From Mobula hypostoma (taxonomy: Eukaryota), in the NCBI RefSeq assembly GCF_963921235.1, contig NC_086097.1, positions 162,380,001-162,444,000 of the forward strand: a stretch of 64,000 bases of DNA, given 5' to 3'. Numbering within the stretch: the first letter of the stretch is position 1; each line of letters opens with the position of its first letter. The position numbers and the translations under genes are program-made. Below the pieces are notes generated by a model. The model did no database searches. It was given only the letters and a program-made list of their open reading frames with translations, and was not told where the DNA came from. Below are positions 2,628 to 57,300 of this stretch, one piece after another.

Positions 2628-4496
2628 GCAACACACATCAAAGTTGCTGGTGAACGCAGCAGGCCAGGCAGCATCTCTAGGAAGAGGCGCAGTCGCCATT
2701 TCAGGCCGAGACCTTTCATCAGGACGAACTGAAGGAAGAGTGAGTAAGGGATTTGAAAGTTGGAGGGGGAGATCCAAAATGATAGGAGAAGACAGGAGGG
2801 GGAGGGATGGAGCCAAGAGCTGGACAGGTGATAGGCAAAAGGGATACGAGAGGATCATGGGACAGGAGGTCCGGGAAGAAAGACGGGGGGGGGGGGAACC
2901 AGAGGATGGGCAAGGGGTATATTCAGAGGGACAGAGGGAGAAAAAGGAGAGTGAGAGAAAGAATGTGTGTATAAAAATAAGTAACAGATGGGGTACAAGG
3001 GGGCGGTGGGGCATTAGCGGAAGTTAGAGAAGTCAATGTTCATGCCATCAGGTTGGAGGCTAGCCAGACGGAATATAAGGTGTTGTTCCTCCAACCCGAG
3101 TGTGGCTTCATCTTTACAGTAGAGGAGGCCGTGGATAGACATGTCAGAATGGGAATGGGATGTGGAATTAAAATGTGTGGCCACTGGGAGATCCTGCTTT
3201 CTCTGGCGGACAGAGTGTAGATGTTCAGCAAAGCAGTCTCCCAGTCTGCGTCGGGTCTCGCCAATATATAAAAGGCCACATTGGGAGCACCGGACGCAGT
3301 ATATCACCCCGGTCGACTCACAGGTGAAGTGTTGCCTCACCTGGAAGGACTGTTTGGGGCCCTGAATGGTGGTAAGGGAAGAAGTGTAAGGGCATGTGTA
3401 GCACTTGTTCCGCTTACATGGATAAGTGCCAGGAGGGAGATCAGTGGGGAGGGATGGGGGGGACGAATGGACAAGGGAGTCGCGTAGGGAGCGATCCCTG
3501 CGGAATGCAGAGAGAGGGGGGGAGGGAAAGATGTGCTTAGTGGTGGGGTCCCGTTGGAGGTGGCGGAAGTCACGGAAGTCAAGCACATCTTTCCCCCCCC
3601 CCCGCATTCCGCAGTGATCGCTCCCTACGCGACTCCCTTGTCCATTCATCCCCCCCATCCTTCCCCACTGATCTCCCTCCTGGCACTTATCCGTGTAAGC
3701 GAAACAAGTGCTACTCATGCCCTTACACTGCCTCCCTTACCACCATTCAGGGCTTCCAAACAGTCCTTCCAGGTGAGGCAACACTTCACCTGTGAGTTGG
3801 CTGGGGTGATATACTGTGTCCGGTGCTCCCGATGTGGCCTTTTATATATTGGCGAGACCCGACGTAGACTGGGAGACCGCTTTGCTGAACACCTACGCTC
3901 TGTCCGCCAGAGAAAGCAGGATCTCCCAGTGGCCACACATTTTAATTCCACCTCCCATTCCCATTCTGACATGTCTATCCACGGCCTCCTCTACTGTAAA
4001 GATGGAGCCACACTCAGGTTGGAGGAACAACACCTTATATTCCGTCTGGGTAGCCTCCAACCTGATGGCATGAACATCGACTTCTCTAACTTCCGCTAAT
4101 GCCCCACCTCCCCCTCGTACCCCATCTGTTACTTATTTTTATACACACATTCTTTCTCTCACTCTCCTTTTTCTCCCTTTGTCCCTCTGAATATACCCCT
4201 TGCCCATCCTCTGGTTTCCCCCCCCCCTGTCTTTCTTCCCGGACCTCCTTTCCCATGATCCTCTCATATCCCTTGGCTCCATCCCTCCCCCTCCTGTCTT
4301 CTCCTATCATTTTGGATCTCCCTCTCCCCCTCCAAATCCCTTACTCACTCTTCCTTCAGTTAGTCCTGACGAAGGGTCTCGGCCTGAAACGGCGACTGCG
4401 CCTCTTCCTAGAGACGCTGCCTGGCCTGCTGCGTTCACCAGCAACTTTGATGTGTGTTGCTTGAATTTCCAGCATCTGCAGAATTCCTGTTGTTTG
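2628..4496. mobile_element. Penelope-like element 3' ends, inverted double (left arm -, right arm +)
   Basis: GIY-YIG ORF remnants (VIYCVRCSRCGLLYIGET...NIDFSNFR*) on both strands; 14-bp TSD CGAAGTAAGGACAA at 2614-2627 and 4497-4510. Confidence 0.9.
4362..4397 (+). ncRNA. Hammerhead motif with mutated cleavage triplet (GGC)
   Basis: AGTC-CTGACGA-AGGGTCTCGGCCT-GAAAC-GGC-GACT; the mirror copy at 2691-2726 (-) also has GGC. Confidence 0.6.
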
Positions 4497-4984
4497 CGAA
4501 GTAAGGACAAAGTGAGTTTGGCTTGTGGAAGTTGACGAAGATGATGTTGAAGAGGTTTTGGCAGCCCACGACCAAGAACAGATAGATGAAGAGCTGATGC
4601 AATTGGAAGAGGAAAGGATAACAATCGAAACCGAATGCAGTAGCGAACGGACCAAAAGTGAAGTCGTCCAGGAACTGAACGTGAAGCAATTGCATGAGAT
4701 TTTCGCTGCAGTGATTGCAGAAAAGTACGACTTTAATTTTGAAAGGGTACGTAGGTTTAGGGCATATTTGCATGATGGTTTGGGTGCTTACAAAGAACTG
4801 TATGGTAGAAAAATGCGCGAGGCTAAGCAATCAAGCATACTGTCGTTTTTCAAGCCTTCCACATCAGCCACAGCAGATGATGAACTTCGACCTTTGACAT
4901 CGAGGCAGGCAGACATAGAAGAAGATGACCTGCTTGCCCTGATGGAATCAAACAACGACGAGATGACACCCCAGCGTCCCACCA

Positions 4985-5319
4985 CTCCAACCTCCAGGCT
5001 GCGGACTGATACATTGCTGCGGAGAATGCAGCGGTAGCTGGGACGCACCCAACACACCTTTAAGAGAAAAGCCAAAATAAACAAGCTAATTAATTAGGTG
5101 CCGCCTGGCACGTAAATGTCGGCCCAGATCAGAGGCGATTGCCAATTGCATCGCCTCTGATCTGGGCTGACATTTACGTGCTGGGCGGCACCTAATTAAT
5201 TAGCTTGTTTATTTTGGCCTTTTTCTTAAAGATGTGCTGCGTGCGTCCCGGCTACCGCTGCACCACTGTATGCTTCGCGGATCGGTATCGGTTGGCGGCC
5301 TGGAGGTTGGGGACCACTG
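4985..5319. mobile_element. Palindromic MITE (hAT-like end) nested in the Tigger
   Basis: Near-perfect inverted repeat 5027-5262 centred near 5144; right end reads CAGTGGTCCCCAACC on the - strand. Confidence 0.6.
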
Positions 5320-10761: not shown

Positions 10762-10921
10762 CGGAGGTTAAGCGTGTGGGTGATACATTACTCGGCATGG
10801 CAACTCAATGCGTGCAGGTTAAAAATGTGCTGAAAACCTCTCCGCAAACACTTTCCAACCTTTGCCTGAAGATCAATGTAAAGCTGGGAGGTGTCAATAA
10901 CATATTGGTGCCACAAGGAAG
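10762..10921 (+). CDS. AGO2: Argonaute-2 exon (MID)
   Basis: acag|CG GAG...GGA AG|gttggt; 160 nt; [54 protein letters not shown]. Confidence 0.96.
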
Positions 10922-13142: not shown

Positions 13143-13233
13143 GCCAGCAGTATTTCAGCAGCCGGTTATATTTTTGGGTGCAGATGTAACACACCCACCA
13201 GCTGGTGATGGGAAGAAGCCTTCTATTGCTGCG
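13143..13233 (+). CDS. AGO2: Argonaute-2 exon (PIWI start, first catalytic Asp)
   Basis: ccag|G CCA...GCG|gtaggt; 91 nt; [30 protein letters not shown]. Confidence 0.96.
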
Positions 13234-13647
13234 GTAGGTTCTTTACTTTTAAAAAAAAATCACACACACACAACAAAATGGTGAGGATGCTAGATGTCGG
13301 GAATAGAAAATTGCTGGAAATACCAAGCAGGTAAATTATCAATACGGGAGAAAGTCAGTATTTGTTTCAAACAAAATTTAATTTCTTATGAAAGGTCATC
13401 ACTGAAAAATTGACTATTTCTCTCCTGCTAATTTTGCATGACCAGAATATGTCTAGTATATATCTGTTCTTGTCTTATATTTTCAGTTCAGTTTATGTTA
13501 GAGTGTTAAATCATTTTCTTGGAAAAAGTAACAAGTTATTTAGTATTGCAAACAACAGGAATTCTGCAGATGCTGGAAATTCAAGCAACACACATCAAAG
13601 TTGCTGGTGAATGCAGCAGGCCAGGCAGCATCTCTAGGAAGAGGTAC

Positions 13648-13683
13648 AGTCGACGTTTCAGGCCGAGACCCTTCATCAGGACT
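13648..13683 (-). ncRNA. Minimal type I hammerhead ribozyme motif (PLE-borne)
   Basis: Reverse complement AGTC-CTGATGA-AGGGTCTCGGCCT-GAAAC-GTC-GACT. Confidence 0.72.
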
Positions 13684-14875
13684 AACTGAAAGAAGAGTTG
13701 GTTAGAGATTTGAAAGTGGGAGGGGGAGATCCAAAATGATAGGAGAAGACAGGAGGGGGAGGGATGGAGCCAAGAGCTGGACAGGTGATTGGCAAAGGGG
13801 ATATGAGAGGATCATGGGACAGGAGGCCCAGGGAGAAGGAAAAAGTGGGGGGGGGAACCCAGAGGATGGGCAAGGGGTATAGTCAGAGGGACAGAGGGAG
13901 AAAAAGGAGAGTGAGAGAAAGAATGTGTGTATAAAAATAAATAACGGATGGGGTACGAGGGGGAGGTGGGGCATTAGCGGAAGTTAGAGAAGTCGATGTT
14001 CATGCCATCAGGTTGGAGGCTACCCAGACGGAATATAAGGTGTTGTTCCTCCAACCCGAGTGTGGCTTCATCTTTACAGTAGAGGAGGCCGTGGATAGAC
14101 ATGTCAGAATGGGAATGGGAGGTGGAATTAAAATGTGTGGCCACTGGGAGATCCTGCTTTCTCTGGCGGACAGAGCGTAGGTGTTCAGCAAAGCAGTCTC
14201 CCAATCTGCGTCGGGTCTCGCCAATATATAGAAGGCCACATCAGGAGCACCGGATGCAGTATATCACCCCAGCCGACTCACAGGTGAAGTGTCGCCTCAC
14301 CTGGAAGGACTAATGTGGCCTTCTATGTATTGGCGAGACCTGACGCAGACTGGGAGACCTCTTTGCTGAACACCTACGCTCTGTCCGCCAGAGAAAGCAG
14401 GATCTCCCAGTGGCCACACATTTTAATTCCACCTCCCATTCCCATTCTGACATGTCTATCCACGGCCTCCTCTACTGTAAAGATGAAGCCACACTCGGGT
14501 TGGAGGAACAACACCTTATATTCCGTCTGGGTAGCCTCCAACCTGATGGCATGAACATCGACTTCTCTAACTTCCGCTAATGCCCCACCTCCCCCTCGTA
14601 CCCCATCCGTTATTTATTTTTATACACACATTCTTTCTCTCACTCTCCTTTTTCTCCCTCTATCCCTCTGACTGTACCCCTTGCCCATCCTCTGGGTTCC
14701 CCCCTCCCCACTTTTTCCTTCTCCCTGGGCCTCCTGTCCCATGATCCTCTCATATCCCCTTTGCCAATCACCTGTCCAGCTCTTGGCTCCATCCCTCCCC
14801 CTCCTGTCTTCTATCATCTTGGATCTCCCCCTCCCCATCCCACTTTCAAATCTCTTACTAACTTTTCCTTCAGTT

Positions 14876-14911
14876 AGTCCTGAGGAAGGGTCTCGGCCTG
14901 AAACGTCGACT
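14876..14911 (+). ncRNA. Minimal type I hammerhead ribozyme motif (PLE-borne)
   Basis: AGTC-CTGAGGA-AGGGTCTCGGCCT-GAAAC-GTC-GACT: helix I AGTC/GACT, core CUGANGA and GAAA, GUC cleavage triplet. Confidence 0.7.
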
Positions 14912-15182
14912 GCACCTCTTCCTAGAGATGCTGCCTGGCCTGTTGCATTCACTGGCAACTTTGATGTGTGTTGCAAGTCATTTAGTATGAACATTAGGTG
15001 AATATATTGGACTTTGCAGTCAGTTCTGTAATCAAAGGCTAATATTAAACCCGTACACCCATTTCATTCTACCGTCCTCCCCATGTTCAAAAGCATCCTA
15101 AAACTTATTTCTTCAGTTTCACATCTTGGGATCAACATGTCAGGTCATTACATATTTTTTTTTAATAATTCATAGAATTCTC

Positions 15183-16415
15183 AATGGCTTTCCACGTGGC
15201 TTTAGACCACCTGGATAACACAAACACCTACATCAGGATGCTGTTCATAGATTATAGTTCAGCATTTAATACCATTATTCCCTCAATCCTGATTGAGAAG
15301 TTGCAGAACCTGGGCCTCCCTCTGCAATTAGATTCTCGACTTCCTAACCGGAAGACCACAATCTGTGCGGATTGGTGATAACATATCCTCCTCATTGACA
15401 ATCAACACTGGTGCATCTCAGGTGTGTACTTAGCCCACTGCTCTACTCTCTATGTACCCATGACTGTGTGGCTAGGCATAGTTCCAATACTATCCATAAG
15501 TTTGCTGATGATACAACCATTGTTGGTAGAATGTCAGGTGGTGAGGAGAGGGCATACAGGAGTCAGATATGCCAACTAGTGGAGTGGTGCCACAGCAATA
15601 AGCTGACACTGAACGTCAGTAAGACGAAAGAGCTGATTGTGGATTTCAGGAAAGGTAAAATGAAGGAACACATACCAATCCTCATAGAGGGATCAGAAGT
15701 GGAGAGAGTGAGCAGTTTCAAGTTCCTGGGTGTCAAGATCTCTAAGGATCTAACCTGGTCCCAACTTATTGATGCAGTTGTAAAGAGGGCAAGACAGCAG
15801 CTATACTTTAATAGGAGTTTGAAGAGATTTGGTATGTCACCAAATACACTCAAAAACTTCTATAGATGTACCTTGGAGAGCATTCTGATTCTGACAGGCT
15901 GCATCACTGTCTGGTGCGGGGGTGCGGTGGGTGGCTGCTGCACAGGACCAAAAGAAGCTGCAAAGGGTTGTAAATTTATTCAGCTCCATCTTGGGTACTA
16001 GCCTACAAAGTACCCAGGGCATCTTCAAGGAACGGTGTCTCAGAAAGGCAGTGTCCATTATTAAGGACTTCCAGCACCCAGGGCGTGCCCTTTTCTCACT
16101 GTTACCATCAAGTAGGAGGTAAGAAGCCTGAAGGCACACACTCAGCGATTCAGGGACAGGTTCTTCCCCCCCCTGCCATCCGATTTTTAAAAGGACATTG
16201 AACCCTTGGACCCTACCTCACTTTTTAAAATATATATTATTTCTGATTTTTTGCATGATTTTTAATCGATTCAATATACAGGTACTGTATGAAGTATACT
16301 GAATAGGATTTATTTCTTATTGTTTTTTTCTTCTATATTATGTATTGCATTGAACTGCTACAACTAAGTTAACAGATTTCATATCACATGCCAATGATAA
16401 TAAATCTGATTCTGA
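15183..16415 (+). mobile_element. Rex/Babar-like LINE 3' fragment
   Basis: [30 protein letters not shown]; tail AATAAATCTGATTCTGAT. Confidence 0.82.
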
Positions 16416-18064
16416 TAGCTCAGTAAAAGCCCTCCTACCCATGATATTGTCTTTTAACCTACTCTAAGATCAGTCTAATTCTTCCTTTCCACATAGCCTT
16501 ACATTTTTTTGTCTATATGTCTTACCTTTAGAATCTCCTAAATGTCCCCAATGTATCTATCTCCATCACCACCTTTGGCAGATACAGTACTCCAAGTGAG
16601 TTTTACAGAGCTGCAACATTACCTCCCAGCTCTTGAATTAAATCCCCTATTAATAAAAGCTAACACACCACGTGTTTCTCAACTGCTCATTAATTTGCCC
16701 TGCAACTTTGAAGGATCAGTGGATATGGACCTCAAGAGCCCTCTATTCCTTCATATTGTCATCCTGCCACTGACCGTGTATTCTGCCTTCAAGTTCAGCT
16801 TTCCATAGTGAACTTTCCTGGATTGAATTCCATCTGCCACTTCTCAGCCCAGGTCTCTGCAAACTCTCAACATCCTGTGAACTTCTGCACAATCCACCAT
16901 ACCACCAACTCTCGTGTCAAATGCAGACTTGCTAACCGTGCTCAATCAAGTCATTTATAAAAATTATAAAGAGCAGGGGATCCAAATAGATCCCTATGGA
17001 GCACCACTGGATTCAGACAGCATACATTCATGCTGAATTTGTTTTCTTATTCAAGAATAGGTATTTTGTTTCCTACAAAAAAGGAAAAAGAAATCTAATT
17101 ACACCAGATATATCTATTGTTAATTATCAATTTATAAGCATTAGGTTTACCTCAACGGGAAAAATCAAATTTTCTTTCTACTGGTGGTGGTGCTGTCATT
17201 TGAATGCATTACTTGTACAAAATTTTTAAAAAAAGTTCCGATTAATATTACCATTTTTGGTAGCTAAAAAAAATAAGTAAATTCTCAAATTATGAGGAGA
17301 ACAGGGAGGAGTCAGAGACTGAATGAGTTTGAAACATGAGGCTTGCATTTGTATAGGGACTTTCATAGCCTAGAAATGTTCCCAAGTGCTTTACAGCTGA
17401 GGAGGTATTTTATAAATGTAGTTTCATCTAAATAACAGTGCCCCCCCATAGTAAACCACTTGGTGTTGTATTTGAGTGATGGGAAAGAGTTTAGTTGTAA
17501 AAGGCTAAACTTACTTTGAAAAGAATCAGAAATAGTGTTTGAATCGTATTTTTGTATGCATTATTTATATATAATCTGGATTAAATTAGAAATTAAATAC
17601 AGACTATATAATAATGTTTTCAAAAATGTGAGCTCTGATTTTAATATTCCGTGAAATCTGCTGCCCCAACAGCACCCCCTCACCACCCTCGACCCCTTAA
17701 AAATACACGGACATGACTGTTAAAACTCAAAGATGTCCTTAGGAAACATCCCTGTATCCAATGTGCTGATGAAACTACTTTCCCTTGTATTCATTTGCAA
17801 AGTACTCAAGTTGCATATTCCAGGATTCTTAAAATTACAAATAAAACCTAAATGAGATCATATATTCAAAATTTAAGAATAAACTACTGTGGAATCTAAT
17901 TAGAGATATTCAATTAAACTGTGCTTGCAATTGTATATCAGGCATAACATGCACATTATATGATATTGTTTTTAAATTAGAAACAATAATAAGCTTTCAA
18001 AGAATATTCAATGCTGCAGCAGATTTGCTAATAATCATACATTTAAGTTGCAACTTAAACACCT

Positions 18065-18930
18065 CCCTACGCAACTCCCTTGTCCATTCGTCCCCCCCAT
18101 CCCTCCCCACTGATCTCCCTCCTGGCACATAACCGTGTAAGCGGAACAAGTGCTACACATGCCCTTACACTTCCTCCCTTACCACCATTCAGGGCCCCAA
18201 ACAGTCCTTCCAGGTGAGGCAACACTTCACCTGTGAGTCGGCTAGGGTGATATACTGCGTCCGGTGCTCCCGATGTGACCTTTTATATATTGGCGAGACC
18301 CGACACAGACTGGTCGACCGCTTTGCTGAACACCTACGCTCTGTCCGCCAGAGAAAGCAGGATCTCCCAGTGGCCACACATTTTAATTCCACATCCCATT
18401 CCCATTCTGGCATGTCTATCCACGGCCTCCTCTACTGTAAAGATGAAGCCACACTCGGGTTGGAGGAACAACACCTTATATTCTGTCTGGGTAGCCTCCA
18501 ACCTGATGGCATGAACATTGACTTCTCTAACTTCCGCTAATGCCTCACCTCCCACTCGTACCCCATCTGTTACTTATTTTTATACACGCATTCTTTCTCT
18601 CACTCCCTTTTTTCTCCCTCTGTCCCTCTGAATATACCCCTTGCCCATCCTCTGCGTCCCCCCCCCCCGTCTTTCTTCCCGGACCTCCTGTCCCATGATC
18701 CTCTTGTATCCCTTTTGCCAATCACCTGTCCAGCTCTTGGCTCCATCCTTCCCCCTCCTGTCTTCTCCTAGCATTTTGGATCTCCCCCTCCCCCTCCAAC
18801 TTTCAAATCCCTTACTCATTCTTCCTTCAGTTAGTCCTGACGAAGGGTCTCGTCCGGAAACGTCGACTGCACCTCTTCCTGGAGATGCTGCCTGGCCTGC
18901 TGCGTTCACCAGCAACTTTTATGTGTGTTG
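18065..18930 (+). mobile_element. 5'-truncated Penelope-like element (GIY-YIG plus 3' region)
   Basis: GIY-YIG ORF 18214-18540; 11-bp TSD CTTAAACACCT at 18054-18064 and 18931-18941. Confidence 0.9.
18833..18868 (+). ncRNA. Minimal type I hammerhead ribozyme motif (PLE-borne)
   Basis: AGTC-CTGACGA-AGGGTCTCGTCCG-GAAAC-GTC-GACT; helix II partly eroded. Confidence 0.68.
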
Positions 18931-19333
18931 CTTAAACACCTGTTATTGAGTTTCATAAGCATTATATACAGTGGGTTCAAAGTGACAATTTTGGGCAAAT
19001 CTTCAGTGTAATGACCTCTGTCAATTGTGTGGTATATTAGTAGCACAGAATTAGCACCCTTCTAATTCGCCCACACTGGTTTCTCAAGGACTTCTTGTTT
19101 TATCTTGTAGTGTGGTGAGCTAAAAACATCTTCAAGGGCACTAAATTTGAAAACTAATTTCCTGTCCTCATTAAAAGGAAATGCTTTACTGATAAGTTTT
19201 GCTGCTTCACGTGGTTTCAATTTTTTTTTAAATGTTGATAACAACATTCAGTGTTCTTCAGTATCATATTCTGGTTGTACAATGAAGTGTGCTCTAAGGT
19301 TATTTTCTCATGTGTTCTTTTTTTTTAACATAG

Positions 19334-19528
19334 GTTGTAGGTAGCATGGATGCTCATCCAAGTCGCTATTGTGCCACAGTACGTGTTCAACAACATCGAC
19401 AGGAGATTATACAGGACCTTGCTATCATGGTCAGAGAACTCCTCATTCAGTTTTACAAATCTACCCGTTTCAAGCCTACGCGTATCATATTTTACAGAGA
19501 TGGTGTTTCAGAAGGGCAGTTTCAGCAG
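19334..19528 (+). CDS. AGO2: Argonaute-2 exon (PIWI, catalytic Glu and second Asp)
   Basis: atag|GTT...CAG|gtaatg; 195 nt; [65 protein letters not shown]. Confidence 0.96.
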
Positions 19529-26849: not shown

Positions 26850-28585
26850 CCAGCTATCTCTTGTGGACAAAGACAGCTCCAATGCCATATTCAAGTTTGC
26901 TATTGGCACCACTGTTGAAAGCAAAATCAAAGATGGTAGTGAATCAGCATAAAGGAGGGAGATTAAAGATCTGGCTAAGTGGTGTCATAACAACAACCTC
27001 TTACTCAATATCAACAAGATCAAGGAGCTGGTTATAGACTTCAGGAGAAGGAAACTAAAGGTCTATGAGCAGACCTCAGAGGATTAGAGATGGGTTAGCA
27101 ACTTTAAATTCCTAGCTTTTGTTATTACGGAGGACTTAGCTTGGGTGCAGCACAATTACAAAAAAAATTCACGGTAGTGCCTCTGCTTCCTTAGGAGTTT
27201 GTGGAGATTCAGCATTACATCTAAAACTTTGACAAACTTCTATAGGATGTGGAGTGGATAGTACATTGACTGGCTGTATCACAGTCTGGTACAGAAACAT
27301 CAGAATCAGGTTTATTATCACCAGCATGTGTTGTGAAATTTGTTAACTTAGCAGCAGTAGTTCAATGCAGTACATAATATAGAAGAAGAAAAAATAACAA
27401 TGACAATAAATAAGTAAATCAATTACAGTATATGTATATCAAATAGATTAAAAATCGTGCAAAAAATAAGAAATAGTATATATTTTAAAAAGTGAGGTGG
27501 TATTCACAGGTTCAATGTCCATTTAGGAATCAGATAGCAGAGAGAAAGAAGCTGTTCCTGAATTGCTGAGTGTGTGCCTTCAGGCTTCTGTTCCTCCTAC
27601 TTGATGGTAACAGTGAGAAAAGGGCATGCCCTGAGTGCTGGAGGTTCTTAATAATGGATGCTGCCTTTCTGAGACACCACTCCTTGAAGATGTCCTGGGT
27701 ACTTTGCAGGCTAGTACCCAGATGGAGCCGACTAACTTTACAACCTTCTGCAAGTTTTTTCGGTCCTGTGCCCACCCACCCCCTTACCAGACAGTGGTGC
27801 AGCCTGTTAGAGTGCTCTCCATGGTACATCTATAAAAGTTTTTGATTGTGTTTGTTGACATACCAATTCTCTTTAAACTCTTAATGAAGTATAGTCACTG
27901 TCTTGCCTTCTTTATAACTGCATCAATAAGTTAGAACCAGGTTAGGTTCTCAGAGATCTTGACACCCAAGAGCTTGAAACTGCTTACTCTTTCCACTTCT
28001 GATCCCTCTGTGGATTAGTATGTGTTCCTTCGTCTTGCCCTTCCTGAAGTCCACAATCAGCTCTTATATGGAGAATTCTGCAAAAAGTAGTGGACATGGC
28101 CATCATGGGTAAAGCCCTCCCCACCATTGAGCACATCTGCATTAAACACTTCTGCAAGAAAGCAGCTTTCATCATCAGGAACCCCCACCACCCAGGACAT
28201 GCTTCTTTCTCCCTGCTGCCATCAGAATGAAGATATAGGAGCCACAGGTCACACACTAGCAGTTTCAGGAACAGTTACTACACCTCAACCATCAGACTCT
28301 TGAACCAAAAGGGATAACTTCACTTACCCATTCACTGAAATGTTCCCACAACCAATGGATTAATTTTCAAGGACTCTTTGTCTCACATTCTTTATTGCTT
28401 ATTTATTATTATTTATTCTTTTTATATTTACACAATTGTCTTCTGCACTCTCGTTGTACAACCTAGTTGGGCAGTCATTCATTGATTCTGTTAGCGTTAT
28501 CATTCTGTAGATTTATTCAGTATGGCCGCAAGAAAATGAATCTCAGTTGTATATGGTGACATGTATATACTTTGATAATAACATT
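26850..28585. mobile_element. Nested Rex/Babar-like LINE fragments (+ copy interrupted by a - copy at ~27300-28060)
   Basis: Clear similarity to 15183-16415 in both orientations. Confidence 0.7.
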
Positions 28586-31776: not shown

Positions 31777-31885
31777 TGCTGAAGGAAGTCACACGTCTGG
31801 TCAGAGTAATGGTAGAGATCAGCAAGCTCTAGCTAAAGCTGTGCAGGTTCACCAGGACACACTGCGCACTATGTATTTTGCTTGA
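31777..31885 (+). CDS. AGO2: Argonaute-2 last coding exon
   Basis: ttcag|T GCT...[42 protein letters not shown]; the HTSG and [11 protein letters not shown] motifs are AGO2-type. Confidence 0.96.
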
Positions 31886-38849: not shown

Positions 38850-39060
38850 AAAGAAAATCTGCAAATATTGGAAATCCGAGCAACTACCAAAAGTTGGAGA
38901 AATCTGTGTTCAACCCATCAGGTTGGAGGAATACAAGGTGTTTCTCCTCTGACTTGAGTGTGGCCTCATTGTGACAGTGGAGGAGGCCATGGACTGACAC
39001 GTGGGAATGGGAAGTGGAATTAAAATGGGTGGCCACTGGGAGATTCTGCTTTCTCTGTGA
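38850..39060 (-). mobile_element. Old Penelope-like GIY-YIG fragment
   Basis: QRKQNLPVATHFNSTSHS...QPDGLNTDFSNF. Confidence 0.75.
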
Positions 39061-41914: not shown

Positions 41915-41987
41915 ACTTGGCTAGCTCAGCCAGTACAGCATGTGACTCTTAATCACAGGGTTGTGGTTTCAAGCCTCACTTTGGGTG
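41915..41987 (+). pseudogene. tRNA-Lys(CTT) pseudogene
   Basis: 73-nt colinear match to vertebrate tRNA-Lys-CTT (GGCTAGCTCAG...CTCTTAAT...GGTTTCAAGCC); CpG decay, weak acceptor stem, altered B box. Confidence 0.8.
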
Positions 41988-50270: not shown

Positions 50271-50789
50271 TAAACAACAGGAATTCTGCAGATGCTGGAA
50301 ATTCAAGCAACATACATCAAAGTTGCTGGTGAACACAGCAGGCCAAGCAGCATCTATAGGAAGAGGCGCAGTCGACGTTTCAGGCCGAGACCCTTCGTCA
50401 GGACTAACTGAAGGAAGAGTGAGTAAGGGATTTGAAAGCTGGAGGGGGAGGGGGAGTTGCAAAATGATAGGAGAAGACAGGAGGGGGAGGGATAGAGCCG
50501 AGAGCTGGACAGGTGATAGGCAAAAGGGGATACGAGAGGATCATGGGACAGGAGGTCCGGGAAGAAAGACGGGGGGAGGGGGACCCAGAGGATGGGCAAG
50601 AGGTATATTCAGAGGGACAGAGGGAGAAAAAGGAGAGTGAGAGAAAGAATGTGTGTGCATAAAAATGAGTAACAGATGGGGTACGAGGGGGAGGTGGGGC
50701 CTAGCGGAAGTTAGAGAAGTCAATGTTCATGCCATCAGGTTGGAGGCTACCCAGACGGAATATATGGTGTTGTTCCTCCAACCTGAGTG
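50271..50789 (-). mobile_element. Penelope-like 3' fragment in CHRAC1 intron 1
   Basis: Same family sequence, from LRLEEQH...NFR* to the terminus GAATTCCTGTTGTTT; no clear TSD. Confidence 0.88.
50370..50405 (-). ncRNA. Minimal type I hammerhead ribozyme motif (PLE-borne), sense to CHRAC1
   Basis: Reverse complement AGTC-CTGACGA-AGGGTCTCGGCCT-GAAAC-GTC-GACT. Confidence 0.72.
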
Positions 50790-50799
50790 AGGACGGTGA

Positions 50800-52174: not shown

Positions 52175-52366
52175 GCAACACACACAAAACACTGGAGGGA
52201 CGCAGCAGACCAGGCAACATCTATGGAAAAGAGTAAACAGTTGAAAGGTGTCGGCGTAACGCGGACTGTGTACTCTTTTCCATGGATGCTGCCTGGCCTG
52301 CTGAGTTCCTCCAGCGTTTTGAGTGTGCTGCTTGGATTTCCAACATCTGCAGATTTTCTCTTGTTT
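52175..52366. mobile_element. Miniature inverted double of a related Penelope-like 3' terminus
   Basis: Arms 52175-52245 (-) and 52264-52366 (+) are mutual reverse complements; degenerate flanking repeat TGGG(CT/TC)TCTGAATT. Confidence 0.7.
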
Positions 52367-54389
52367 GGGTCTCTGAATTTTTTTAAAGCTAATTTTTCAT
52401 GTTTCATATACACCCTTGGCAAACCAGCATTTCTGTTATGACCCACTGAATCTGTGCTGACCATCGAGCAAGCGTTTATAGGATGAGAGTCAGATTCACT
52501 GTCACTGATAGTAATCGTGAAATTTGTTGTTTCGTGGCAGCAGTGCAGTACAGGTAAAACAAATTACTATCTATATACTACTAAAATTCTCATGGTCTGT
52601 TTGTTTGTTTGTGACCTCCAATTAGCCCAAATGGTGCATGACAACGGCACTTTTTTCGACTAAATCAACTCAAAATGTGCTAACTTACAGAATGCATGCA
52701 AAGTTTAGGGTTATATATTCATATAAAATCGCTCACTCGTCAATCAACAGGCCCCACTTTCCACAACCCGAGCCGATTCCAGCTTTAATGGAAACCGCGA
52801 CACGACACCATGGCGCATGCGCATGGCCAGCCTCAGCAGCGCCTCACGATGCTCACAGCAGCGACACCAAACGCAGCAAAAGGGCAAGACTATCACGTCC
52901 ATTTAGGAGCGGGCCAACCACATCATCAAGAAAAATCAGCTTCCTGGAGGCATTGGTGTTACTGCTTCGTATCTTCTATCAAGCATTAGGGTAAAAAAAA
53001 TGGACAGCTTAATTATGCCGCTTGGAAAAAGAAGGGGGACATTATGGTCAAGAGATGACGCCAAACGTCGTCGGGAAGTGGCAAGGAGAGGGAGAGAACG
53101 AGAATCAGATTAGGCCAGGATCAAAGGGTCAGGACAAAAATGATGAGAGAAGAAGAGACAGAGGAGGAGAGGCATGCATGTCTCCAAAATGACAATAATG
53201 GGCACAGAAGGAGGAGAGAACAAGAATCGATCAGGCCAGGGCTGCACGACTCCAGAATCAGAGAGAAAGAACAAATGGTAGAAGAGATGAAGAGACGAAG
53301 GATGAAAGGGCTGCGGGTCTCCAGAATAACAAAAAAAGGCAGAGACTGAGGAAAGAGGAAGAGACAGAGGAGAAAAGGAAAGATCAACTTAAAAATATGC
53401 AGTAAAGACTACCCTATTGAATAATGAGCAAAGAGAAGTATATGAATATGTGTGTGACTGCTTGGAAAGGAATCTCTCTTAAATGATTTTCATTGATGCA
53501 CCAGGAGGAACGGGCAAGATATTTATCATCAACTTGATCCTCGCTGAAGTTAGGGGAGATGGAGGTGTTGCTATTGCTGTAGCATCATCAGGTATTGCAG
53601 CAACATTGATGCCTGGTGGTAGGACAGCGCATTCAAGATTCAAAATACCCCTCAAAGTCAATGAAGATGCCCTTTGTAACATCGATAAAAACACCAATAC
53701 TGCAAATGTACTCCAAAATGCGAGGCTTATTGTCTGGGATGAGTGCTCCATGATTAGGAGGGAGAGCTTCGAAGCCGTGGACCGGACTTTTAGTGATGTA
53801 TGCAGCAGGAATGAGGCCTTCAGAGATATTTTAACCATTTGCTGTGGTGATTTCCGTCAGCTTCCAGCAGATGTGAAACGAGGAAATGATGCTGATGTGG
53901 AGAATTCTTGCATAAAAAAATCCTACTTATGGAGAAGCTTCTTCAAGTTTCAATTGAAGAGAAACCTGCAATTGAGTGAGGGAGAAGGACTATATGCTGA
54001 GTTCTTATTGGATGTTGGAGAAGACAAGATTGAGAAAAATGAAAAGGATGAAATTGAATTACCTGAAGATATGATTCTGCCAGCAAAAAGTATGGAAGAA
54101 TGTGTTGATTTCATCTACCTGACATTTGACAATCCTGCAGAACTGTTCTGGAGGAATTCTATTTTGGTTCCTCTCAATGAAATGATGCGAAAAATAAACT
54201 CCACATGCATTAGACGCTTCCCTGGTATCGTGAAAGAATACTGTTCCTTCAATACCGCAGGTGAAGGAGCTAACGCCACTCATTTTACAACAGAATTCCT
54301 TGATTTGGTTGAACTCTGGATTGCCACCACATAAACTGGAATTGAAGAGGGGATCTCCCATCATTTCAATGAGTAACTTGGATCCACCA

Positions 54390-57300
54390 TCTTCTAACAT
54401 TGATTTATTTAAACAAGGGGTTGAACTCCAATCACAATATAATTTACTATTAACTTTTCCTATTGAAAGAAATTTGCTTAAATTGAAAAGTCAATTTTAT
54501 GTGTTTGGAGGTAAAAATAATAAGCTATTAGCATCTCAATTAAAAGCAGCCAGAGCCAAAAGACAAATTTTAAAAATTCATAAGGGAGACGGTAGTTTAC
54601 CTTGTAATTATGAAGACATTAATAAAATTTCAAGACTTTTATGTTGAACTTTATAAATCTCAGTTTCCAGCTGATCCCTCTAAAATGAATGCCTTTTCAC
54701 GAAAGATTGATTTTCCTTGAATTTCTGTTGAAGATCAACAAACTCTAGATACTCCTATTACTAAAAACAAAATTCAGAAAGCTATTCTTTCAGTGCAATC
54801 TGGTAAAGCTCCTGGATTGGATGGTTATTCTGTAGGATTTTATAAAAAAATTGAAAAATTGCTTTCTCCATATATGTTGGAAATGCTTAAAGATTCTATT
54901 TTGATAGGAGAGTTACCTCCCACATTTTATGAAGCTTCTATTTCTTTAATTCTTAAGAAAGGTGAAGACCCTGCTGACTGCTTCTTACAGACCTATTTCA
55001 TTATTAAATATGGATGCTAAAATTCTTTCAAAAATCGACTGGAGAATATTCTAGCTAAAATTATCTCTCAGGACCAAACAGGTTTTGTAAAGGGCCGTTA
55101 TTCCTTCTCTAATACTTGGAGACTGTTAAATGTTACATACTCATCCTTTTCTAAGACTCCCCATTGTGTTCTTTCTCTTGATGCTGAAAAGGCATTTGAC
55201 AGAGTTGAAATGAAATACTTATTTAACGTTTTAGAGAAATTAGACTTTGGTATTAATTTTAATAAGTGGATTAGAATGATATATAAAAGCCCTATTGCTG
55301 CTGTTATTACTAATAATTGCAAATCTCCTTCTTCTCGACTCTCACAGGGTATGAGACAAGGATGTCCGTTAAGTCCCTTATTATTTAATTTGGTGTTGGA
55401 ACCCTTGGCCATTGCACTTCGTGAAGCTAAAGATATCCATGGATTTTTCATAAATAGGGCTATTCATAAGATCTCCCTTTACGCTGACGATCTCTTAGTT
55501 TATGTTTCGAATCCTGAAGAATCCATTCCTAGTTTATTGAAATTATTAAATGAATTTGGAAAGTATTTGGGAATTTGGAATATAAACTGAACCTTCATAA
55601 AAGTGAATTATTTCCCCTAAATGATTCTACTTCTATATATGATGACATTCCTTTTAGAGTTATGGACTCTTTTAAATATTTAGGTATTATTATCACTAAA
55701 AATCATAGTCATAGTCATACTTTATTGATCCTGGGGAAAATTGGTTTTCGTTACAGTTGCACCATAAATAATAAATAGTAATAGAATCATAAATAGTTAA
55801 ATAGTAATATGTAAATTATGCCAGTAAATTATGAAATAAGTCCAGGACCAGCCTATTGGCTCAGGGTGTCTGACCCTCCAAGGGAGGAGTTGTAAAGTTT
55901 GATGGCCACAGGAAGGAATGACTTCCTATGACGCTCTGTGCTGCTTCTCGTTGGAATGATTCTCTGGCTGAATGTACTCCTGTGCCCACCCAGTACGTTA
56001 TGTAGTGGATGGGAGTCATTGACCAAGATGGCATACAACTTAGACAGCATCCTCTTTTCAGACACCACCGTGAGAGAGTCCAGTTCCATCCCCACAACAT
56101 CACTGGCCTTACGAATGAGCTTGTTGATTCTGTTGGTGTCTGCTACCCTCAGCCTGCTGCCCCAGCACACAACAGCAAACATGATAGCACTGGCCACCAC
56201 AGACTCGTAGAACATCCTCAGCATCGTCCGGCAGATGTTAAAGGACCTCACTCTCCTCAGGAAGTAGAGATGTCTCTGACCCTTGTAGACAGCCTCAGTG
56301 TTCTTTGACCAGTCCAGCTTATTGTCAATTCGTATCCCCAGGTATTTGTAATCCTCCACCATGTCCACACTGACCCCCTGGATGGAAACAGGGGTCACCG
56401 GTATCTTAGCTCTCCTCAGGTCTACCATCAGCTCCGTAGTCTTTTTCACATTAAGCTGCAGATAATTCCGCTCACACCATGTGACAAAGTTTCCTACCGT
56501 AGCCCTGTACTCAGCCTCATCTCCCTTGCTGATGCAGCTAACTATGGCAGAGTCATCTGAAAACTTCTGAAGATGACAAGACTGCAGTAGTTGAAGTCCG
56601 AGGTGTAAATGGTGAAGAGAAAGGGAGACAAGACATAGACCAAAGATAGAGACCTTTATAGAGCTAATTTGATTCCTTTAGTGGATTTTATGAAGTAATT
56701 ATTTTGTAGATGGAATCCATTTACACTTTCGTTAGCCGGCCAAGTTCATGCAGTTAAAATGATGATTTTACCAAAATTTTTATATGTATTTCAAAATATC
56801 CCTTTTTTTTAAACTAAGAAGTTTTTTGATCAGATTGATTCTATTATTTTATCTTTTGTTTGGAATAATAAAAGACCAAGAATTGGAAAATATCATTTAC
56901 AAAAATTAAAAAAGGATGGAGGTCTTGCCCTGCCTAATTTAAGAATGTACTATTGGGCTGTTAATGTATGTTATATGTGTTCTTGCTTATATTGGACTGA
57001 TAAAAATGAACGACCACCTTGGGCTGATTTGGAATTGAAAGCTGAGAAACAGTTTCACTTAACCTCGTTGTTAGGAGCTTCTTTATTTGTACAACTGGCC
57101 AAAATCGCTAATCTAAATTTATATCCTATGATTAAGCAGTCATTACGAATTTGGTACCAGTTCGTAATATTTTTAATCTCAAAAAATTTAACCTGAGTTT
57201 AATTTATTGTAATTATTTATTTAAACCTTCATTAAGTGATCCTCCCTTTCTTCTTTGAAGGAATAAAGGAGTTTATTCCTTCATGGATCTGTTCCAAGAA

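Follow-up and report, generated by a model that had tools for sequence, protein, structure and literature searches.

Penelope hammerhead motifs in an AGO2 intron of the ray Mobula hypostoma are likely inert passengers of truncated insertions

Can hammerhead ribozymes carried by a transposable element cut the pre-mRNA of a core RNAi gene? The question is raised by a 64,000-nucleotide stretch of the genome of the ray Mobula hypostoma (contig NC_086097.1, positions 162,380,001 to 162,444,000; here, the window), in which two sense copies of a minimal hammerhead motif from a Penelope-like element (PLE), at 14876 and 18833, lie in the same AGO2 intron. The initial annotation of the window proposed that one pre-mRNA could supply both halves of a working dimer. 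It would be highly surprising if a transposon ribozyme did regulate so central an RNAi gene. Our analysis favors another answer, to which we assign a probability of about 0.85: the motifs are Penelope end-repeat hammerheads left by two 5′-truncated insertions and are likely inert passengers, with no meaningful cutting of AGO2 pre-mRNA. This reading draws on two insertions flanked by target-site duplications, the huge size of the family, the broken stem of the 18833 copy, the lack of a shortage of sense copies, and the presence of spliced contigs, as well as on an empty 18833 site in a relative, CpG-biased decay, and a parallel arrangement at another locus. For AGO2 there is little consequence, and the ray gives one more example of a published motif. 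More than 45,000 exact copies permit an annotation-wide comparison of sense and antisense copies for harm to host pre-mRNAs, a question left open in the relevant passages of PMC4209133.

The window was searched with a 25-nt core pattern, allowing up to three mismatches, and 100 shuffles served as the control. Six matches were found, at 4362, 14876, and 18833 on the plus strand and at 2691, 13648, and 50370 on the minus strand, with 0 expected from the shuffles; these are the positions and strands annotated at the outset. Each copy consists of a helix I arm, CUGANGA, one extra A, a 4-bp helix II, GAAA, a palindromic CG, UC, and a second helix I arm. The catalytic core (CUGANGA, GAAA, and UH) is complete in four of the six copies (13648, 14876, 18833, and 50370), while the GUC triplet is changed to GGC in 4362 and 2691, which had already been described as triplet mutants. 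All four core-intact copies have a helix I of 4 to 5 bp and palindromic 15.2-16.2 pairs without loop 3. In 13648, 14876, and 50370, one extra nucleotide precedes helix II, which has 4 bp and includes the 10.1-11.1 pair, as G-U rather than G-C. Judged by its sequence, the motif is of a published kind, the minimal type I hammerhead found in Penelope pseudo-long terminal repeats (pLTRs), here in a new family. Both this identification and the palindromic nature of helix III, as first annotated, agree with the portions of PMC4209133 that describe the class. A hammerhead search had been suggested, and a scan of the window with Rfam matched no hammerhead family at E values up to 1, so the identification made here rests on the core and stem rules.

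Although the letters of the core are intact in all four copies, as annotated, this does not hold for the stems. The 18833 copy (18833 to 18868, plus strand; predicted site after 18864) has a broken stem II, with 0 pairs from the helix base in either register versus 4 bp in the family. Its helix II, altered at two positions on the 3′ strand, has lost the 10.1-11.1 pair and keeps two inner pairs. A competing hairpin is predicted to absorb the CUGANGA box with a probability of 0.37 (60-nt flanks) and is seen in the minimum free energy (MFE) structure too, while the predicted probability of stem II is at most 0.01. On these predictions, 18833 is a copy whose core letters are intact, yet it is not a fold-intact hammerhead. 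The remaining three are fold intact: 13648 to 13683 (minus strand, antisense to AGO2), 14876 to 14911 (plus strand, predicted cut after 14907), and 50370 to 50405 (minus strand), the last in a solo insertion (about 50272 to 50792) that lies 18.5 kb beyond the AGO2 stop. Monomer folding z-scores for four copies ranged from -0.05 to 0.52, values that are uninformative for a motif of this kind.

The six motifs correspond to four insertions, with 2691/4362 and 13648/14876 being the arm pairs of single inverted insertions. Within the intron, the inverted Penelope insertion at 13547 to 14973 has an antisense arm reaching to 14311 (long tail end) and a sense arm from 14313 (short end); the arms form an inverted match of 93% identity, and a 15-bp target-site duplication lies at 13532 and 14974. 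The second insertion in the intron (18065 to 18930, plus strand) is a solo, 5′-truncated copy made up of a GIY-YIG remnant, a pyrimidine-rich spacer, the hammerhead, and the short end, with an 11-bp target-site duplication at 18054 and 18931. An upstream AGO2 intron holds another inverted insertion (2628 to 4496; arms 2691 on the minus and 4362 on the plus strand) with a 14-bp target-site duplication. The GGC triplet is common to both of its arms, so either the template ribozyme was inactive or the arms were homogenized later.

The position of the motif is that of a PLE hammerhead, in the 3′ repeat and after the GIY-YIG open reading frame (ORF). The distance from the stop to the motif is 296, 293, and 263 nt in the plus-strand copies 4362, 14876, and 18833, respectively, in keeping with the value of about 290 nt first noted. 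The ORF at 18133 to 18540 (plus strand) encodes a C-terminal GIY-YIG remnant preceded by a CX4CxxC linker (PF01541, E value of 7.5e-4, under the curated cutoff). Its closest named relatives are from myliobatiform rays, at 93% and 85% identity, and a relative with 64% identity (P0126) has a reverse transcriptase (RT) followed by GIY-YIG, the RT being seen in that relative only. A CX2-5CxxC linker is named as a Neptune feature, and the Nematis linker is similar, in the sections of PMC8557442 that treat these clades. The element appears to be an endonuclease-bearing (EN+) PLE with a Neptune-type linker; no full-length element was recovered, and the clade is a tentative assignment from the linker. 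Its copies show 5′ truncation, inversion, and an optional tail. Among 36 inverted pairs (window plus loci L001 to L266), 35 combined a tailed 3′ end with a short one, a pattern that priming of the two strands from the two start sites would produce. These sites, where reverse transcription likely begins, lie about 70 and 105 nt downstream of the cut site; synthesis would then read through the uncut ribozyme to give 5′-truncated solo or inverted copies.

The host gene was identified by homology. The exon at 19334 matches Pfam Piwi (E value of 3e-21), and its best PDB match is AGO2 (127.5 bits, with AGO3 at 120, AGO1 at 112, and AGO4 at 101). A tblastn search with shark AGO2 (P0015) placed ten exons on the plus strand, from 6426 to a stop at 31883 to 31885. 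The intron that contains both sense copies (13234 to 19333, plus strand, GT..AG ends) is flanked by a coding exon at the MID/PIWI boundary (13143 to 13233, with AG and GT ends) and by a PIWI-domain exon (19334 to 19528). The placement of 14876 and 18833 in this intron is upheld by its GT..AG ends, homology, and contigs; the 50370 copy does not share it, as it lies 18,485 nt beyond the stop codon of AGO2 and outside the coding-region introns.

Contigs from runs presumed to be RNA (RNA-like) were used to follow splicing. In four of four runs (X1, X2, X5, and X9), a single contig carried both the exon ending near 10921 and the one at 19334, separated by 92 letters, which fits the 91-nt exon at 13143 to 13233 after junction-ambiguous bases are counted. 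The X1 and X2 contigs showed no differences from the window in the listed exon pieces, and X1 showed none in four unique intron pieces. These joined contigs and the absence of differences indicate splicing of the intron in this species or one very close to it. Run X23, from a relative, includes a contig (depth, 3.9) that joins 18053 to 18931 and is an empty site for the 18833 insertion. In run X24, pieces stop on either side of that insertion, with no join among those listed.

To form a heterodimer, both sense copies would have to be free in the same transcript. In the MFE structure of 13548 to 14990, 14876 pairs with 13683 and 14911 pairs with 13648; the local duplex between the 14876-14911 and 13683-13648 motifs is predicted at -70.5 kcal/mol, and the arm duplex of the whole insertion (13547 to 14973) is predicted at -1,359 kcal/mol. 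The same antisense arm (13548 to 14311) gives -1,401 kcal/mol with the copy at 18203 to 18936. As there is one antisense arm for two sense copies, at most one copy would be free. The antisense arm would be transcribed first, and the emerging 14876 copy is predicted to zip into a duplex of about 660 bp; the arm may instead take the 18833 copy, so that both would never be free together. Sequestration of 14876 by its antisense arm, offered initially as an alternative outcome, is therefore what folding predicts. The 14876/18833 double hammerhead itself has a predicted energy of -8.1 kcal/mol versus -25.1 kcal/mol for the MFE dimer, which has a different fold, a gap of 17 kcal/mol. Predicted sequestration, and not the broken stem of 18833, is the chief obstacle to a heterodimer.

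If intronic sense copies were cut to the detriment of their hosts, they should be scarce in genes. An orientation set of 120 stretches of 10 kb each (1.2 Mb) with known gene strand was assembled; 40 lie mainly between kinase-domain exons of one gene, and 80 lie beside such exons or upstream of the window. The exact motif occurred 9 times in sense and 8 times in antisense, against 7.85 expected per strand, with a 95% range of the sense ratio of about 0.5 to 2.2. Among 76 core hits, copies intact by the fold rules numbered 16 in sense and 10 in antisense (P = 0.33); the 40 surer stretches held three in each orientation. Of the 40 young copies covering the motif, 11/22 sense and 8/18 antisense copies were intact (5/12 and 4/9, respectively, for solo copies). 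Sense copies are not depleted in gene-oriented DNA, a result that excludes only strong depletion, of about twofold or more. The stretches hold 60 young copies in all, about one per 20 kb, and inverted pairs are common (19 of 40 young gene copies are in pairs and 21 are not). At locus L147, in another gene, two fold-intact sense copies lie 6.5 kb apart.

Several points weigh against the view that the AGO2 copies are inert. The broken stem of 18833 is not decisive, since the intact core of 14876 would cut the 18864 site in a heterodimer. The probability of stem II in local folding was 0.00 even for the intact 14876 copy, which indicates that energy models are weak on the hammerhead fold itself. 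Two sense copies in a given 6.1 kb are uncommon under independence (0.1 to 0.4%); two same-strand copies within 100 kb are expected by chance in 14 to 47% of cases. The orientation test excludes no depletion weaker than about twofold, and for 80 of its 120 stretches an intragenic position is only probable. Tandem retrozymes are reported to be depleted in Xenopus introns, with orientation unmentioned in the part of that report that bears on this (10.64898/2026.07.22.740005). The spliced contigs could come from animals that lack the two insertions, and since contigs do not show RNA ends, finding none at 14907 and 18864 carries no weight. Finally, the core outside CpG sites is modestly better conserved than the flanks, varying about half as much.

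This last point comes from 78 long copies picked by their downstream flank and counted with gaps, excluding six polymorphic columns and the anchor. Changes affected 6/698 non-CpG core cells versus 107/5,441 flank cells (P = 0.036; upstream flank alone, 42/2,883), while CpG cells were changed in 34/386 cases in the core and 77/544 elsewhere. An ungapped count gave a stronger contrast (P = 0.0016, or P = 0.00015 with a polymorphic column kept), but its upstream flank is inflated by junctions, and the gapped count on long copies is preferred here. Equal variation of core and flanks, which would have spoken against a ribozyme family as initially described, was thus not what we found. Genome counts gave a similar comparison: freeing four core A/U sites raised the count from 52,990 to 55,493 (+4.7%), and freeing four flank A/T sites raised it to 57,383 (+8.3%). 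The conservation likely reflects selection on source elements, with a post-insertion share possible. Such selection would maintain the ribozyme, which in source elements likely acts together with another copy and the protein that the element encodes, while inserted copies would decay mostly at CpG sites. In-register copies are still fold intact in 46 of 93 cases, and their 10.1-11.1 pair is G-U in 59 and G-C in 33.

The family is very large. The 34-nt motif has 45,476 exact copies in the 3.48-Gb genome, one per 76 kb, and its 28-nt downstream flank has 55,619 exact matches. Among 151 downstream-anchored copies, 37 have their 5′ ends within -10 to +4 of C3, 6.3 times the rate at -100 to -11, and 18 of these 37, which end at the 5′ edge of the hammerhead, have noninverted flanks. 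The pile-up may represent run-off from a transcription start at the ribozyme or an RT stall at the fold. The literature passages searched held no earlier description of such a pile-up, which makes for a weak claim of novelty. The sequence TCAGTT, at -10 to -5 relative to C3, lies just 5′ of the hammerhead and is initiator-like. An internal promoter is documented for Penelope in the excerpted text of PMC2377424. The idea that a common spliced leader precedes helix I was rejected, as the flanks of copies that begin at -6 to -1 are unrelated. Only 4 of 150 copies begin at the cut site (+27 to +30). Genome-wide, just 946 matches begin, or have a deletion, between +24 and +35 and lack an in-register GAAA box, and 16 of 29 inspected matches of the cut-site region are fold-back junctions, several via short repeats of stem I or helix III. 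In view of their rarity and the fold-back junctions, cut-site starts were rejected as evidence of cleavage in vivo.

How, then, do other explanations fare? In the dimer proposed initially, 14876 and 18833 would pair via their ACGU palindromes in one pre-mRNA, cut the intron cotranscriptionally, and tune AGO2 output. Both copies are indeed in sense in the same intron with intact core letters and GUC triplets, cleavage by dimers is a published mode (in the passages on activity in PMC4209133 and PMC6765202), and the intronic CPEB3 ribozyme can affect mRNA maturation according to the pertinent section of PMC10919898; that 14876 could supply the core for the 18864 site makes the broken stem II alone insufficient as an objection. 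However, with 14876 predicted to be locked in a duplex, 18833 lacking stem II, and a single arm that binds either copy, the working dimer is not supported, and the 17-kcal/mol gap, the undepleted sense copies, the spliced mRNA contigs, and the contig of a relative that lacks the 18833 insertion oppose it further. We regard it as very improbable. A free sense copy might instead pair with another family transcript, or be helped by a PLE protein, and be cut at a low level that leaves AGO2 mRNA unaffected. Family sequence is plentiful in RNA-like contigs, an intact partner in a heterodimer could cut 18864, and protein-assisted cleavage is shown for another PLE in the experiments of PMC11167929 considered here. 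Yet activity in vitro is low even for tandem constructs in the assays described in PMC4209133, and the few matches at +24 to +35, with their fold-backs, give no clear trace of cut RNA; we hold such trans cutting to be improbable. Still harder to credit is a PLE protein that, for example in the germ line, refolds intronic copies into active double hammerheads and cuts AGO2 pre-mRNA together with thousands of other introns that hold intact sense copies. If it were so, host silencing would be lowered as the element moves.

An effect without catalysis, if there is any, is unlikely but can be pictured: the 660-bp duplex would be a likely ADAR or Dicer substrate, and the sense copies bring in branchpoint- and CAG acceptor-like sequence. 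The arms are 93% identical with a very stable predicted duplex, the acceptor-like sequences end at 14873 and 18830, and in the Drosophila example given in PMC4209133 a Penelope intron stops at the 5′ boundary of helix I. Against this, no joint runs into 14873 or 18830 among the 15 joints listed out of 531, A>G and T>C differences are no commoner than C>T and G>A ones (in multimapping contigs), and inverted pairing is commonplace among young gene copies. We thus return to inert passengers as the preferred reading. Even a rare cut likely would not abolish AGO2 mRNA, since introns cut by slower hammerheads still splice (PMC2995048, in statements resting partly on Dye 2006 and Fong 2009).

The element can be set beside known systems, as far as the cited passages describe them. 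Minimal hammerheads in metazoan PLE pLTRs (Cervera and De la Peña 2014, PMC4209133) are of the same motif class; there, monomers do not cleave and dimers and trimers cleave at low levels. Helix II has 4 bp in the ray family versus 7 to 8 bp in Schistosoma families, and exact copies number 45,476 in the ray versus about 4,000 in coelacanth and about 9,000 in Xenopus, although counting methods differ (PMC4209133). The PAc (Poseidon) element of Anolis, like the ray element, has its hammerhead upstream of two 3′ ends, short and tailed, and makes insertions from uncut RNA; unprocessed RNA is its main insertion template, and this lizard hammerhead cleaved only with PLE protein and left no RNA-seq ends at the site (portions of PMC11167929). 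Whereas PAc belongs to Poseidon, the linker of the ray element is Neptune type, and its ribozyme activity is here a prediction. EN+ PLE insertions share with those of the ray 5′ truncation, an inverted truncated copy, the CX2-5CxxC linker, and a tail, of 30 to 40 bp, at one end only, as in the 35 of 36 ray pairs (Craig et al. 2021, PMC8557442, as excerpted). Host-adopted intronic ribozymes, namely, the HDV-like one of CPEB3 (PMC10919898) and the hammerheads of human RECK and C10orf118 (PMC10761166), are likewise sense self-cleaving motifs in introns of coding genes in the accounts drawn on. Those ribozymes have demonstrated activity, whereas the AGO2 pair belongs to a set of tens of thousands of copies, and the stem of one of the two is broken. 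The RECK and C10orf118 hammerheads are titled ultraconserved (via PMC10761166); conservation at the orthologous site is not matched by the 18833 insertion, which is absent from the one X23 contig (depth, 3.9). A non-LTR retrozyme was rejected as an identity for the ray copies, which are dispersed or inverted with GIY-YIG remnants, not tandem protein-less units. Such retrozymes are protein-less and built of units repeated in tandem, every unit carrying a type I hammerhead, in the portion of 10.64898/2026.07.22.740005 consulted.

Further features were seen in and around the window. The sequences at 14846 to 14873 and 18803 to 18830 each combine a branchpoint-like sequence, pyrimidines, and a CAG two bases before helix I and are candidate cryptic acceptors in the AGO2 sense. 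Within AGO2 pre-mRNA, the inverted insertions at 13547 to 14973 and 2628 to 4496 would form double-stranded RNA of about 660 and 850 bp, respectively. Rfam microRNA matches at 3445 to 3667 fall in the middle of the latter insertion, which itself breaks into a DNA-transposon-like remnant at 2503 to 2625 and 4516 to 5310 that has no Pfam match. We take this remnant to be of Tigger/pogo type, a label that Pfam does not support; an additional inverted repeat lies at 4987 to 5310. Between the two sense copies is a LINE-type RT remnant (RVT_1, 15399 to 16416), with an inverted copy of 83% identity in a later intron (27299 to 28065). Copies from related Penelope families at 38891 to 39057 and 52242 to 52367 are older and decayed and have no intact core, and older families elsewhere (loci L061 to L180; for example, L064 and L151) carry variant helices I and II around the same core. 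Annotated stingray isoforms named mucin-2 and DIPK1C (P0123 and P0125) include the GIY-YIG region of the element, by exonization or annotation error. A weak tRNA-like match at 41915 to 41987 (30.4 bits) is probably the head of a SINE. Searches for TRAPPC9 and for histone folds gave no usable gene near the window. A tyrosine-kinase exon lies on the plus strand about 246 kb upstream of the window (G000:C1:162134170-162134373), in keeping with the PTK2-AGO2 gene order of other vertebrates.

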